DNA of 16,600 bases from a virus (Duplodnaviria > Heunggongvirae > Uroviricota > Caudoviricetes). Shown piece by piece: positions 2,040 to 6,504 of this stretch. Under the pieces are notes generated by a model, which was not told where the DNA came from, searched no databases, and saw only the letters and a list, made by a program, of their open reading frames with translations. Location of the stretch: the IMG/VR virus record IMGVR_UViG_2654587792_000017, one strand, 5' to 3'. The position numbers were made by a program, and so were the translations under genes. Numbering within the stretch: the stretch's first letter is position 1; each line of letters opens with the position of its first letter.

Positions 2040-2579
2040 GTGCTGACAACGCAAAAACGAAAATTTGCGCTGGCGCTCATGTCCGGGAAAAACAAAACAG
2101 CGTCAGCCATTGCCGCTGGTTATTCGGCGAAGACCGCCAGGGTTAAAGGCTCGCAGCTGGCAAAAGATCCGGAGGTGCTTGCGTTTATAGCCCGTAAACA
2201 ATGCGAGACGGTGGAGGTGGATGAGGTTCCTGTTTACCGGCAGAAAAAATCAGAGCAGGAGGATAAACCCCGTCGCCGTGAGGCGGCTGCAATACCACAG
2301 CCGGACGAAAACAATCCGGAGATGCCACCGTCCGCGGTGATGTCTCCTGGTATTGAATATATGGAGGATGGTCTTCCCGATCCGGTGAAAGCGATGGGGC
2401 GTCTTCTGGTGGAGAACATTAATACCGACCCCAGGCTGGCGCAGTTCACGCACCATAAAAAAGGGGATGCCGGTAAAAAATCGGCAAAAGGTGACGCGGC
2501 GAAAAAAGCGGCTAACCGTTTTGCGGTGCCACCACCACCCCGCCTGGTGGTGAATAATGATAATGAGGGCAACGGATGA
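2040..2579 (+). CDS. Terminase small subunit
   Basis: 179 aa, GTG start with GGGAGGAGG Shine-Dalgarno. N-terminal helix-turn-helix-like region MLTTQKRKFALALMSGKNKTASAIAAGYSAKTARVKGSQLAKDPEVLAFI typical of P27/HK97-type small terminase subunits, with a low-complexity C-terminal tail. The stop overlaps the terL start (ATGA). Confidence 0.85.
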   Translation: MLTTQKRKFALALMSGKNKTASAIAAGYSAKTARVKGSQLAKDPEVLAFIARKQCETVEVDEVPVYRQKKSEQEDKPRRREAAAIPQPDENNPEMPPSAVMSPGIEYMEDGLPDPVKAMGRLLVENINTDPRLAQFTHHKKGDAGKKSAKGDAAKKAANRFAVPPPPRLVVNNDNEGNG

Positions 2580-4237
2580 TACCTGTGTGGAGCACGGCCT
2601 GCCCGGACTGGGCAGAGCGCCTGAAAAAGGGGCTGTCGATTATTCCGGCTCCGATTTATCCGGACCAGGCTGCACATGCACTGGCGATTTTTAAACAACT
2701 GCGAATTGTGGATGCACCGGGTAGCCCGACATTCGGGGAGTCCTGTGCACCGTGGGTGTTTGACCTGGTGGCGGCCCTGTTTGGCTCCTACGATGCGCAG
2801 ACCGGTGTTCGCCATATCAAGGAAGTGTTTATCCTTATCCCCAAGAAAAACAGTAAGTCCACGCTGGCTGCGGGGATCATGATGACGGCGCTGTTACTGA
2901 ACTGGCGGCAGGCGGCGGGCTACACCATTCTGGCCCCGACCGTGGAGGTGGCGGCTAACGCCTTCAACCCTGCCAGGGATATGGTACGACGGGACGATGA
3001 TCTGGATGACCTCTGTCAGGTGCAGACACATATCCGGACCATCACCCATCGGGTGACGGACACCACCCTGAAGGTGGTGGCAGCCGATCCGAATACGGTG
3101 TCCGGTATCAAGTCCGTGGGGACACTGATTGATGAACTGTGGCTGTTTGGCAAGCAGTACAAGGCGGAAGACATGCTACGTGAAGCCATCGGCGGGCTTG
3201 CCTCCCGTCCGGAAGGGTTTGTGGTGTATACGACCACCCAGTCGAATGAACCGCCCGCCGGGGTGTTCAGACAGAAACTGCAGTATGCCCGGGATGTCCG
3301 TGACGGCAAAATTCATGATCCGCACTTTCTGCCGGTGATTTTTGAGCATCCTCCTGAAATGGTGGAAAGCGGGGCTCACCTGCTGATGGAAAACCTCGCC
3401 ATGGTTAACCCGAATCTCGGTTATTCGGTGGATGAGGCCTTTCTGTACCGGGAGTACCGTAAAGCCCGGGAGGCTGGTGAGGAAGCATTTCGTGGCTTCA
3501 TGTCAAAACACGCCAATGTGGAAATCGGTCTTGCCCTGCGTTCTGACCGCTGGGCGGGCGCGGATTTCTGGGAGCAGCAGGGCAGGCGCGTCAGCCTGGA
3601 CGATATCCTGCAGCGCGCTGATGTGGTGACGGTGGGGATTGACGGCGGGGGCCTGGATGATCTGCTGGGAATGTACGTGACTGGCCGTGACAGGGAAACC
3701 CGCGAATGGCTGGGCTGGGGCCATGCCTGGGTGCATGAAACCGCGGTGGTCAGACGGAAGAGTGAGGCATCCCGGTTTCAGGATTTTGTGGCCTGTGGAG
3801 ACATGACGATTGTCCGTCGGGTCGGGGATGACACGGCGGAAGTGGCGGAGTATGTGCGTCGTATTCATGAGGCTGAGTTACTGGATCATATCGGTATTGA
3901 CCCGTCAGGTGTGGGGCAGATTCTGGATTCACTGGCGGAAGCCGGGATCCCCGATGAGAGTGTGGTGGGGATAAGCCAGGGCTGGAAGCTGGGCGGGGCC
4001 ATCAAAACCACCGAGCGCAAACTGGCTGAAGGGGTGCTGATTCACGGTGATCAGCCCCTGATGGCCTGGTGTGTCGGTAATGCCCGGGTGGAGCCTAAAG
4101 GTAACGCCATTCTTATCACCAAACAGGCCAGCGGACGGGGAAAAATTGACCCGCTGATGGCGCTGTTCAATGCGGTCTCCCTGATGTCCCTTAACCCGGA
4201 ACCGAAAAAGAAAGAATATGCGGTTTTTTTCATATAA
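2576..4237 (+). CDS. Terminase large subunit
   Basis: 553 aa with a Walker A-like ATPase motif (LIPKKNSKSTLAAG) and a C-terminal nuclease-like region. Start overlaps the terS stop. The size and position fit an HK97-family TerL. Confidence 0.92.
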   Translation: MIPVWSTACPDWAERLKKGLSIIPAPIYPDQAAHALAIFKQLRIVDAPGSPTFGESCAPWVFDLVAALFGSYDAQTGVRHIKEVFILIPKKNSKSTLAAGIMMTALLLNWRQAAGYTILAPTVEVAANAFNPARDMVRRDDDLDDLCQVQTHIRTITHRVTDTTLKVVAADPNTVSGIKSVGTLIDELWLFGKQYKAEDMLREAIGGLASRPEGFVVYTTTQSNEPPAGVFRQKLQYARDVRDGKIHDPHFLPVIFEHPPEMVESGAHLLMENLAMVNPNLGYSVDEAFLYREYRKAREAGEEAFRGFMSKHANVEIGLALRSDRWAGADFWEQQGRRVSLDDILQRADVVTVGIDGGGLDDLLGMYVTGRDRETREWLGWGHAWVHETAVVRRKSEASRFQDFVACGDMTIVRRVGDDTAEVAEYVRRIHEAELLDHIGIDPSGVGQILDSLAEAGIPDESVVGISQGWKLGGAIKTTERKLAEGVLIHGDQPLMAWCVGNARVEPKGNAILITKQASGRGKIDPLMALFNAVSLMSLNPEPKKKEYAVFFI

Positions 4238-4263
4238 CCCTGTTCACACTGTAACCATCACGA

Positions 4264-4283
4264 ACCGCTGCGGCGGTTTTTTT
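4264..4283 (+). terminator. Intrinsic terminator-like hairpin (ACCGC-TGCG-GCGGT followed by T7)
   Basis: 5-bp GC-rich stem at 4264-4268 and 4273-4277, a 4-nt loop, then a T-run at 4277-4283. It follows the terL stop directly. Confidence 0.5.
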
Positions 4284-4300
4284 ATTTTCAGGAGGCTGAT

Positions 4301-6238
4301 GTGACTCTTAAACGGGCCTGTTCCCTGCTGACGGTGAAATCCTTCAGCGAGGATGAACGGGTGATCACCGGGATTGCGTCAACGCCTTCTCCGGATCGGG
4401 ATGGTGACATCCTGGAGCCGGAGGGCGCGGAGTTTGGCAGTGCGATCCCGTTTCTCTGGCAGCATGACCATTCCCGCCCGGTGGGGCAGTGTACGGTACG
4501 CCGGGTCAGCGAAGGGCTGGAAATCACGGCAACACTGGTGAAGCCCGTACCGGATATGCCGTCGCAACTGGCTGCCCGGCTGGATGAGGTCTGGGCGGCC
4601 ATTAAGACCGGGCTGGTCAGGGGGCTGTCCGTGGGCTTCCGTCCCCATGAATACACCTTTCTGGACGGAGGCGGACTGCATTTTCTGCGCTGGGAACTGA
4701 TGGAGGTGTCTGCCGTCACCGTGCCCGCGAATGCGGAATGCACCATCCGGACCATTAAATCTTACGACCGCCCGTTTTCTGCCGCGTCCGGCAACCGGAA
4801 ACCGGTGGTGAAAATCGCATCTTCTGCCGGCGCTTCGGCACAGTCAATAACCTCTTTTCATAAGGAAAAGTCAGCAATGAATACTGGTGAACAGATTAAA
4901 AGTTTTGAAAACAAGCGTGCGGCGCTGGCAGCCTCCCTTGAGGAGATCATGAACAAAGCCGCAGAGGAAGGCCGCACACTGGATGTGGAAGAGGAAGAGC
5001 ACTACGACAACACCGCAGCGGAAATCCGTCAGGTGGATGCGCACCTGAAGCGTCTGCGTGAACTGGAAACCAGTAAGGCCGCCACGGCACAGCCGGTGAA
5101 ACAGGCCGGTAACGGGAATGTGGCCACGGTGGCTTCAGCGCCGGTGATCCGTGTTGAGCAGAAACTGGAGAAGGGGATTGGTTTCGCCCGCTTTGCCAAA
5201 TCACTGGCTGCGGCTAAAGGCGTCCGATCTGAAGCCCTGGAAGTGGCCCGTCGTCAGTATCCGGATGACAGTCGTCTGCATCATGTCCTGAAATCGGCAG
5301 TGGGCGCGGGGACCACCACGGATCCGCAGTGGGCAGGCAGCCTGTCTGAATATCAGGAATACGCACAGGACTTTATTGATTACCTGCGTCCGCAGACCAT
5401 TATCGGGCGATTTGGTCAGGGCGGGATCCCTGCACTTCGTCAGGTGCCGTTCAATATCCGTGTGCACGCCCAGGTGTCCGGCGGTGCTGCCGGCTGGGTG
5501 GGTGAGGGTAAGGCAAAACCCCTGACGAAGTTTGATTTTGAATCCATCACCTTCAGTCATGCGAAGGTGTCGGCCATTGCGGTACTGACGGAAGAATTGA
5601 TCCGTTTTTCCAGTCCGGCTGCTGATGCACTGGTCCGTAATGCGCTGGCGGAAGCGGTGGTGGCGCGTCTGGATACAGACTTTGTGGACCCGAAAAAAGC
5701 CGCAGTGGCAGATGTCTCCCCGGCGTCCATCACCCATGATGTGAAGGGCACGGCATCAACCGGTAACCCGGATGCGGATGCAGAGGCTGCGTTTGGACAG
5801 TTTGTGGCAGCAAACCTGCAGCCCACCGGTGCGGTCTGGCTGATGTCCAGCACCAATGCCCTGGCACTGTCCATGCGTAAAAATGCGCTGGGTCAGAAGG
5901 AATACCCGGACATGACCCTGCTGGGTGGCTCCTTCCAGGGGCTGCCGGTGATTGTCTCCCAGTACGTGGGTGACCAGCTGGTGCTGGTGAATGCCCCGGA
6001 TATTTATCTGGCGGATGACGGAGGCGTGGCAGTGGATATGTCCCGCGAGGCATCACTGGAAATGCAGTCTGAGCCGACCGGCGACAGTACCACGCCGTCC
6101 CCGGTGGAGCTGGTTTCCATGTTCCAGACAGGCAGCGTGGCCATCCGTGCGGAGCGCTGGATCAACTGGCGTCGTCGCCGTACCGCGGCGGTGGCGGTGA
6201 TCACCGGAGTGAACTACGGCAGTGCGTCCGGCGGCTGA
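4301..6238 (+). CDS. Prohead protease / scaffold / major capsid protein fusion (HK97-fold)
   Basis: 645 aa, GTG start with CAGGAGG Shine-Dalgarno. Residues ~1-160 carry HK97 gp4-type prohead protease motifs (GIASTPSPDRDGD, WQHDHSRPVGQ, GLSVGFRP, LMEVSAVTVPAN). Residues ~190-260 are charged and coiled-coil-like (delta/scaffold-like). The C-terminal ~380 aa look like an HK97-type major capsid protein. No stop codon separates the protease from the capsid part. Confidence 0.85.
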   Translation: MTLKRACSLLTVKSFSEDERVITGIASTPSPDRDGDILEPEGAEFGSAIPFLWQHDHSRPVGQCTVRRVSEGLEITATLVKPVPDMPSQLAARLDEVWAAIKTGLVRGLSVGFRPHEYTFLDGGGLHFLRWELMEVSAVTVPANAECTIRTIKSYDRPFSAASGNRKPVVKIASSAGASAQSITSFHKEKSAMNTGEQIKSFENKRAALAASLEEIMNKAAEEGRTLDVEEEEHYDNTAAEIRQVDAHLKRLRELETSKAATAQPVKQAGNGNVATVASAPVIRVEQKLEKGIGFARFAKSLAAAKGVRSEALEVARRQYPDDSRLHHVLKSAVGAGTTTDPQWAGSLSEYQEYAQDFIDYLRPQTIIGRFGQGGIPALRQVPFNIRVHAQVSGGAAGWVGEGKAKPLTKFDFESITFSHAKVSAIAVLTEELIRFSSPAADALVRNALAEAVVARLDTDFVDPKKAAVADVSPASITHDVKGTASTGNPDADAEAAFGQFVAANLQPTGAVWLMSSTNALALSMRKNALGQKEYPDMTLLGGSFQGLPVIVSQYVGDQLVLVNAPDIYLADDGGVAVDMSREASLEMQSEPTGDSTTPSPVELVSMFQTGSVAIRAERWINWRRRRTAAVAVITGVNYGSASGG

Positions 6239-6254
6239 GTCTGATAAGGAGGAC

Positions 6255-6272
6255 GGGAGGCGTGCGCCTCCC
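6255..6272 (+). other. Perfect 8-bp GC-rich inverted repeat (GGGAGGCG-TG-CGCCTCCC) directly after the capsid stop
   Basis: Direct reading. It is preceded by a strong Shine-Dalgarno-like TAAGGAGG at 6245-6252 and has no T-run after it, so it looks like an RNA-stabilising or translational-control hairpin rather than a terminator. Confidence 0.35.
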
Positions 6273-6282
6273 GTAACAGGTC

Positions 6283-6504
6283 ATGGCAAAGATCCGATAT
6301 CTGCAGGGCACGCATGATGCCCGGGCCGGGGATATCCGTGATGTGGCACAGCCGTGTGCGGAGGTGCTGGTTCGCCTGGGAAAGGCGGAGTACATCACGG
6401 TGCGACGTCCGGCAGGTCAGAAAAAGAAACGTGATGCGGAGCATGGCGAATGTGGAACCTTTTACGGCGAACCCGAAAAAACCAGAAATCAGGACGTGAC
6501 GTAA
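6283..6504 (+). CDS. Hypothetical small protein (73 aa) between capsid and portal genes
   Basis: ORF in the 211-bp gap between capsid and portal. Its Shine-Dalgarno is weak and it overlaps the portal start by 55 nt. No recognisable motif. Uncertain. Confidence 0.3.
   Translation: MAKIRYLQGTHDARAGDIRDVAQPCAEVLVRLGKAEYITVRRPAGQKKKRDAEHGECGTFYGEPEKTRNQDVT

Follow-up and report, generated by a model that had tools for sequence, protein, structure and literature searches.

In bacteriophage lambda, and similarly in phage Mu (I/Z), a single reading frame, that of C and Nu3, yields two products: the long one carries the protease, and the short one, made from an internal ribosome-binding site (RBS), is the C-terminal assembly part. 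The shared C terminus brings the protease into the procapsid, the two starts set the stoichiometry, and for lambda both products have been shown experimentally. Here we analyze a gene that may be organized along comparable lines, namely, the plus-strand open reading frame (ORF) at 4301 to 6238 of IMG/VR record IMGVR_UViG_2654587792_000017, a 16,600-nucleotide (nt) stretch of tailed-phage DNA which, as a whole, is referred to below as the window. This ORF joins a prohead protease to an HK97-fold capsid protein and carries, at the beginning of the capsid part, an in-frame ATG preceded by a Shine-Dalgarno (SD) sequence. The lambda system differs in that its shared part is a separate scaffold, the capsid protein E being encoded by another gene, whereas here the shared part would be the capsid protein with its built-in delta scaffold. 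Moreover, the lambda protease is ClpP/S49-like and not of the S78 family, and the two products are, for the window, a prediction. HK97 gp4 and gp5 have in common with the window both the S78 protease and the capsid fold with an N-terminal helical delta domain as built-in scaffold. They are, however, encoded by separate genes, with noncovalent targeting of the protease and with the portal gene first, whereas the window has a fused gene in the order TerL, protease/capsid, portal. The two-gene layout of HK97 is that of the 15 unfused relatives described below.

In herpesviruses, UL26/UL26.5 provides a protease-scaffold fusion together with a more abundant, in-frame, N-terminally truncated product (PMC11565193). 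The HK97-fold capsid and the assemblin-like fold class of the protease are as in the window, but there the short form is translated from an internal transcript of its own and not from an internal RBS, and the shared part is the scaffold and not the capsid. Among phages, gp03 of Pseudomonas phage PAJU2 (PHROG 617; UniProt P85500, a "capsid polyprotein" in PMC8306868) is 48.5% identical to the window protein over amino acids (aa) 1 to 642. It follows the same order of S78 protease, linker, delta domain, and HK97 capsid, lies in the same neighborhood (TerS, TerL, fusion, small ORFs, portal, portal-adjacent ORF), and has the same internal site (AGGAGG, 8 nt, ATG) before MKTTAEQI; its full-length start is ATG, unlike the GTG of the window. 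Single genes for protease, scaffold, and HK97-like capsid have also been described in actinophages, i.e., Microbacterium clusters EE and EL, Arthrobacter clusters AM, AU, and AN, and Rhodococcus phage RRH1, in papers that deal with the fusion only and describe no internal start (PMC7302621, PMC5513430). These phages differ from the one studied here by their small lytic genomes and canonical portal-first order. The fusion itself is therefore already known from phage PAJU2, PHROG 617, and the actinophage clusters and is not new. A conserved internal capsid start inside a protease-capsid fusion was not described in the literature that we searched, although an earlier description may exist.

According to our analysis, the head gene at 4301 to 6238, which belongs to a lambdoid Stx-type prophage (Pankowvirus, phage 2851-like), is likely to be nested and to yield two products. 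Translation begun at the GTG at 4301 would give a 69-kDa polyprotein consisting of S78 protease, flexible linker, delta helices, and HK97-fold capsid, while independent initiation from TAAGGA (4861 to 4866) and ATG 4877 would give a 48-kDa delta-capsid protein without the protease. Because the delta domain and the capsid are common to the two products, these would be built into the procapsid together. The delta domains, with the protease wherever it is tethered, would face the procapsid interior, so that the fusion would bring the protease in and no targeting signal of its own would be needed. How many of the capsid subunits carry protease would depend on how strong the two initiation sites are relative to each other. 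Once the particle is assembled, the protease would cut away itself, the linker, and the delta domains, and the mature capsid protein, from about aa 280 to 290 onward, would remain. We infer that initiation at 4877 takes place and that the short form is more abundant than the long one; the co-assembly and self-cleavage steps are proposed by analogy with HK97 gp4/gp5, lambda C/Nu3, and herpesvirus UL26/UL26.5.

The fusion gene is a single ORF with a GTG start and 645 codons, encoding a protein of 645 aa and 69.1 kDa. The preliminary description, made from the letters of the window, had placed a protease, a scaffold-like part, and an HK97-fold capsid protein in this one frame, and the ORF itself, Pfam, AlphaFold, and Foldseek agree with it. 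The peptide quoted there is likewise found in the translated ORF. Peptidase_S78 (PF04586) matches aa 48 to 152 with an E value of 2.2e-8 and 34.8 bits, against a cutoff of 21, and Phage_capsid (PF05065) matches aa 386 to 635 with an E value of 4.5e-14 and 53 bits, against a cutoff of 24.2; PHROG 80, "head maturation protease," also matches the fusion protein (E value, 6.7e-41). An AlphaFold model built on 110 homologues, with a mean predicted local distance difference test (pLDDT) score of 86.5, separates a compact protease, the linker, two helices, a second disordered stretch, and the capsid body, with the boundaries given in Table 1. The capsid body resembles the capsid proteins of Bxb1, HK97, D3, and T5 with a Foldseek probability of 1.00 and E values from 1e-14 to 1e-9, while the search for a solved structure of a close relative gave only a weak match, to the Bxb1 capsid protein (E value, 0.0018). 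By analogy with the delta domains of HK97 and T5, the helices of aa 195 to 262 may act as a scaffold, and the disordered segment that follows them is the probable region of maturation cleavage, predicted near aa 265 to 290. H55 and S110, the latter in a G-L-S-V-G-F context, are unchanged in all 110 fused homologues; from what is known of the S78 family we take them to be the catalytic pair, and their invariance fits an active Ser/His protease. As for the linker, its alignment columns are gappy and variable among 150 representatives, apart from aa 176 to 180 (4826 to 4840), where the consensus is P-G-A/V-S/T-G (A-G-A-S-A in the window) and P, G, and the final G occur in 80, 78, and 83 of the representatives, respectively. 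This motif might be a cleavage site or a capsid-targeting tail of the protease.

The internal start in the window lies exactly where it had been described, with AAGGA at 4862 to 4866 and the in-frame ATG at 4877, 10 nt (4867 to 4876) separating the SD hexamer TAAGGA from the ATG. In the AlphaFold model the corresponding residue, M193, is found at the end of the disordered linker, two residues ahead of the first long helix (aa 195 to 223), so that an in-frame internal start, an SD sequence at working distance, and a linker/helix domain boundary coincide at this point. The 60 nt around 4877 have a G+C content (GC) of 0.30, compared with an ORF mean of 0.60, and this is the lowest value among the in-frame 60-nt windows compared; the local minimum free energy of folding (MFE) is -6.9 versus -18.3 kcal/mol. 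A consensus scan of 3900 to 6600 revealed no sigma-70-like site that could serve as an internal promoter for a shorter transcript, and no Rfam family reaches its threshold anywhere in the window, the junction included.

The internal site was then compared across related loci, of which 80 were fetched in a scan that took one genome per species and covered Gamma-, Alpha-, and Betaproteobacteria as well as actinomycete, planctomycete, Flavobacteriaceae, and Clostridia assemblies. The preliminary description had proposed to ask whether homologues keep the protease and capsid fused or separate, and the answer is divided: 65 of the 80 loci are fused (L073 is truncated and appears fused), while 15 have separate genes, with an in-frame TAA as the stop in 4 of them. 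In the 65 fused loci, which are 38 to 71% identical to the window protein, the codon at the protease/capsid boundary is ATG in 59, GTG in 3, and TTG in 2 and is absent in a single one (L057, which has CTG). At the protein level, the M193 column holds Met in 106 of the 150 representatives and Val in 10, and the neighboring linker columns are mostly gaps. The mean SD duplex energy at the boundary codon is -7.3 kcal/mol (64 loci), against -2.8 at 873 other in-frame ATGs of the same ORFs (Mann-Whitney p = 4e-26), of which 19% reach -5. Likewise, an SD core 4-mer at -18 to -5 precedes 60 of the 64 boundary codons (94%) but only 16% of the other in-frame ATGs. The boundary SD is as strong as that of the true 5' starts of the same genes, for which the mean is -6.7 kcal/mol, and the gap between SD core and start has its mode at 8 nt and is mostly 6 to 10 nt. 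Many distant members have textbook sites, e.g., cccAAGGAGGgcacgaaaATG.

Further features set this codon apart from its coding context. When compared with a synonymous-codon null, in which the encoded amino acids are kept under each ORF's own codon usage, the boundary SD is the stronger in 55 of 64 loci (Wilcoxon p = 9e-10), and the residues that encode it vary (KG, KE, EG, QG, RG, ME, EV, RK) while the purine core remains constant. The GC within 30 nt of the boundary codon is 0.48, against 0.62 in the rest of the ORF, and is lower in all 64 loci. The MFE of the boundary region is -9.9 versus -17.9 kcal/mol, a difference seen in essentially every locus. As an internal control we used seven other conserved Met columns, at query positions 213, 217, 515, 526, 540, 588, and 607, whose mean SD energies range from -1.7 to -3.9 kcal/mol, with a GC of 0.60 to 0.63 and an MFE of -16.5 to -19.7 kcal/mol; at the conserved M217 column, for instance, the relatives have no SD. 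The column of the genes' 5' starts gives -6.9 kcal/mol, 0.53, and -12.6 kcal/mol for the same three quantities, and the boundary codon gives -8.2 kcal/mol, with an SD core in 100%, 0.53, and -11.8 kcal/mol. Only the two start columns thus resemble initiation regions, which indicates that a Met conserved for structural reasons does not yield such a signature. As far as it can be judged by computation, the earlier suggestion that the SD and ATG form an initiation site is borne out: a start-capable codon is kept in 64 of the 65 fused loci, with an SD like that of the 5' starts. These comparisons support the view that selection has kept the internal SD and ATG for translation initiation, over and above what their coding context would conserve. 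The full-length 5' start of the related fused loci is ATG in 56, GTG in 5, and TTG in 2 (n = 63), whereas the E. coli lineage of the window uses GTG; we speculate that in this lineage the GTG at 4301 could serve to lower the output of the form with the protease in comparison with the product of the internal ATG.

The 15 unfused loci, of which 11 are separated by a frame change and 4 by an in-frame TAA, are split exactly at the M193 position, and their capsid gene begins at the same codon. The protease gene ends just upstream of the capsid start or overlaps it, with an ATGA or GTGA overlap in four loci. In L044 (at about 3070), L064 (about 3115), and L075 (about 3082), the TAA stop of the protease gene is the first triplet of TAAGGA, and the ATG follows 6 to 9 nt later. 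The window has the same hexamer, read out of frame (caT AAG GAa), so that a small frame change would turn a stop plus SD into a read-through plus SD. Judging from these sequences, TAAGGA is a short element through which evolution can switch the two genes from separate to fused and back. Among the database proteins, the capsid-only representatives P0200, P0234, P0251, P0261, and P0265 begin with MNIAEQI, MKTIQERI, or similar, aligned to query residues 193 to 197. The claim that the ATG stands at the start of an N-terminal, delta-like helical domain of the capsid protein agrees with these capsid-only homologues and unfused capsid genes, which begin there.

The preliminary description had itself pointed out that a frame error removing a protease stop codon could mimic a fusion. 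Put more broadly, a lost stop codon or a frameshift might have artificially merged separate protease and capsid genes in the window, or the ORF might be a pseudogene. The two genes are indeed separate in some relatives, and some database entries are chimeric or truncated, such as P0001, P0003, and P0007 to P0011. Nevertheless, we reject this explanation, whose probability we regard as negligible, because the fusion is conserved across homologues and genomes. The same 645-codon frame is present in 93 phage records, which match positions 4201 to 6300 at 90 to 99% identity, and in thousands of homologues from Enterobacterales and far beyond. Homologues of 644 to 648 aa with 73 to 98% identity occur by the thousand in Escherichia, Salmonella, Enterobacter, Klebsiella, Serratia, Pantoea, and other genera. 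An exhaustive search without profiles, run against 1.84 billion cluster representatives, returned 12,612 relatives, and about 130 of the best 150 cluster representatives are full-length fusions, at 38 to 54% identity. The protease/capsid junction was found in 1251 of 5426 complete E. coli genomes, with as many as 7 copies in one genome; the annotation of these genomes treats it as one capsid coding sequence (CDS). Furthermore, the 626-position profile of PHROG 617 covers both halves (aa 1 to 639; E value, 4.5e-261), and the GenBank label already reads "major head protein/prohead protease."

Two other explanations accept the fusion and deny the internal start a role in initiation. In one of them, every capsid subunit is made as a self-cutting 645-aa fusion, and the internal SD and ATG are an unused relic of a separate capsid gene. 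For PAJU2, autocatalytic cleavage of a polyprotein has in fact been proposed, as cited in PMC8306868, and that citation mentions no internal start; the PAJU2 record carries the note "prohead protease fused capsid protein," the databases annotate a single CDS, and the unfused relatives make an ancestral start a plausible source of the motif. A relic, however, should decay, whereas a start codon has been retained in nearly all fused loci, down to 38% identity, while the linker diverged around it. Moreover, five of the six replacements of ATG are GTG or TTG, the SD matches that of real starts and exceeds what the amino acids demand, and the low-GC, unstructured context has been retained as well. 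We therefore consider the relic unlikely. In the other explanation, which we deem improbable, the K/E-G...M peptide is a protein signal, such as a protease recognition or cleavage site that sets the protease free or a helix cap, or else the SD-like RNA causes an elongation pause that aids folding of the protease. It draws on the bias in the amino acids themselves, on the expectation that the linker must be cut at some stage of maturation, and on the PG(A/V)(S/T)G motif, a second one in the linker, as a sign of protein-level constraint. What speaks against it is that the SD-encoding residues vary while the purine core is kept, that Met gives way to GTG-encoded Val or TTG-encoded Leu and not to other codons, that unfused relatives and capsid-only proteins start at the boundary codon, and that the SD surpasses its synonymous null, in a folding and GC context like that of the true 5' starts.

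Several points weigh against the nested two-product gene, the reading we prefer. The synonymous null already stands at -5.7 kcal/mol, so part of the SD is carried by the bias toward K, E, and G residues, which might conceivably be maintained for the sake of the protein, e.g., as a cleavage site; a Lys-, Asn-, and Ile-rich composition could likewise explain part of the low GC. The loci share descent, so the two p values given above overstate their independence. In the window itself, the internal SD is only moderate (-6.2 kcal/mol), and its 10-nt spacer exceeds the 8 nt most common in the family. Of the 10 ATGs that lie in frame inside the ORF, six have SD duplex energies at least as strong as -5.6 kcal/mol; with comparable scores at that many sites, the window's SD and ATG were rejected as stand-alone evidence. 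M217 and M580 even outscore 4877 in SD energy (-9.3 and -9.5 kcal/mol) but lie in GC-rich, folded sequence. Access to the internal site may be blocked by ribosomes that started at 4301 and are translating through it. Finally, the searchable literature yielded no proteomic, N-terminal, or ribosome-profiling data on this gene family; papers on CapRel/SECphi27, Sp5 morphogenesis, and P1 had no bearing on the gene.

Table 1. Features of the fusion gene and its neighborhood, in positions of the window
Feature	Position	Strand	Remarks
TerS	2040-2579		
TerL	2576-4237		
SD of the full-length ORF, AGGAGG	4290..4295	+	5-nt spacer to GTG; duplex energy with the 16S 3' end, -10.3 kcal/mol
GTG start of the 645-aa fusion	4301..4303	+	
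Protease-capsid fusion ORF	4301..6238	+	Encodes, in this order, protease, linker, scaffold-like (delta) helices, and HK97-fold capsid
Prohead protease domain (Peptidase_S78), aa 18-154	4352..4762	+	Pfam PF04586; pLDDT >90 over aa 21-150
H55	4463-4465	+	Invariant
S110	4628-4630	+	Invariant
Disordered, length-variable linker, aa 155-192	4763..4876	+	pLDDT <50 for aa 155-189
Low-GC, weakly folded zone centered on the internal start	4847..4906	+	GC 0.30; MFE -6.9 kcal/mol
Internal SD, TAAGGA (AAGGA, 4862-4866)	4861..4866	+	Encoded by H-K-E codons, caT AAG GAa; -6.2 kcal/mol
In-frame internal ATG, M193 (codon 193)	4877..4879	+	Proposed start of a 453-aa, 48.3-kDa scaffold-capsid product
Helical hairpin, aa 195-223 and 229-262 (scaffold-like delta domain)	4883..5086	+	AlphaFold; pLDDT 88-97
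Disordered segment, aa 269-279, between delta domain and capsid body	5105..5137	+	pLDDT <50
HK97-fold capsid body, roughly aa 290-640	5168..6220	+	Pfam PF05065; Foldseek
TGA stop common to both proposed products	6236..6238	+	
Small ORF	6283-6504		
Portal	6450-7814		
Portal-adjacent ORF	7811-9034		
Connector and tail genes	Downstream		

From a lambdoid siphophage of the Stx-converting type represented by phages 2851, BP-4795, and YYZ-2008 (genus Pankowvirus), the window covers the late region with head and tail genes. Its gene order, with TerL first and portal last (2576 to 9034), is an inversion of the usual HK97-like head module, in which portal, protease, and capsid follow each other. The order TerL, protease/capsid, small ORFs where present, and portal holds family-wide among loci L002 to L081, with the portal gene after the protease/capsid part in 74 loci and TerL before it in 53. 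At 4262 to 4289, past the TerL stop (4237) and ahead of the SD of the fusion gene, there is a terminator-like GC hairpin with a T-run (GAACCGCtgcgGCGGTTT TTTTATTTT). A comparable hairpin with T-run stands no more than 90 nt ahead of the homologous gene in 15 of 78 loci, most of them from Gammaproteobacteria, compared with 2.4% of background windows; read-through under Q antitermination, stabilization of an mRNA 3' or 5' end, and partitioning of expression are among its possible roles.

Downstream of the fusion gene, the portal ORF (454 aa) and the adjacent ORF (407 aa) overlap by ATGA in the window (junction at about 7795 to 7814), and the corresponding pair of PAJU2 is likewise split with a 4-nt overlap. 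In phage 2851, one extra base turns the pair into a single 860-aa "portal" CDS (L001, 8250 to 10829), and the profile of PHROG 2271, with 859 positions, spans both parts. The portal-adjacent ORF retains its own ATG and a strong SD (-11.3), so that alternation of a fused with a split gene, the internal start being kept, is seen again at this neighboring pair. Farther downstream, two small consecutive ORFs, 11252 to 11674 and 11698 to 11979, lie between the major tail protein and tape-measure genes. Their counterparts are annotated in phage 2851 as "tail assembly chaperone" and "phage-tail protein," and in position they correspond to the lambda chaperones G/GT, a pair ordinarily joined by a programmed -1 frameshift.

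In the database search we also noted relatives of the fusion protein with extra N- or C-terminal material, e.g., TerL ATPase or portal domains, among them P0001 (1079 aa), P0123 (1094 aa), P0133 (1091 aa), and P0003 (784 aa); P0123 and P0133 match the query at their residues 441 to 1090. These oversized proteins may be assembly or frame artifacts, or else larger natural fusions with TerL.

Whether protease-capsid fusion genes of tailed phages are in general nested two-product genes and not polyproteins is a question on which we find the evidence evenly balanced. Such a generalization would take in the window, the large PAJU2/PHROG 617 family, which extends over many bacterial phyla, and perhaps the RRH1-like actinophage fusions. 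RRH1 gp07 (L083, 4439 to 6424) has no Pfam match and no detectable sequence similarity to the window fusion. Its codon 274 is an in-frame ATG that follows GGAAGGA after 9 nt, in the context SPEGTPA-M-NRDQLIAQL and before an apparently helical segment. The local GC at this codon is 0.62 versus 0.71, and two other ATGs in gp07 score similarly; this single case hints that nesting may be general among such fusions. In that event, abundant capsid protein would be made from a conserved internal start, the full-length product would be a minority carrier of the protease, and lineages could pass from the fused to the unfused state and back through single-nucleotide changes in the TAAGGA stop/SD element. 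The main capsid product would then be unannotated in thousands of genomes, including about a quarter of the complete E. coli genomes.

The mechanism proposed here is not new in kind, nesting of a protease with an assembly protein being known, and to specialists in phage assembly it would seem plausible but hardly startling. Should initiation occur at the internal site, a 453-aa principal capsid precursor is unannotated in a very common prophage head module of E. coli, Salmonella, and Enterobacter, including that of many Stx1 and Stx2 phages. Its use would also extend the nesting principle of the lambda and herpesvirus protease/scaffold genes to the capsid protein itself and would explain how a phage with a fused gene avoids making one protease per capsid subunit. 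Two tunable initiation sites within one gene would, moreover, offer an experimental handle on protease dose in the maturation of HK97-type capsids.

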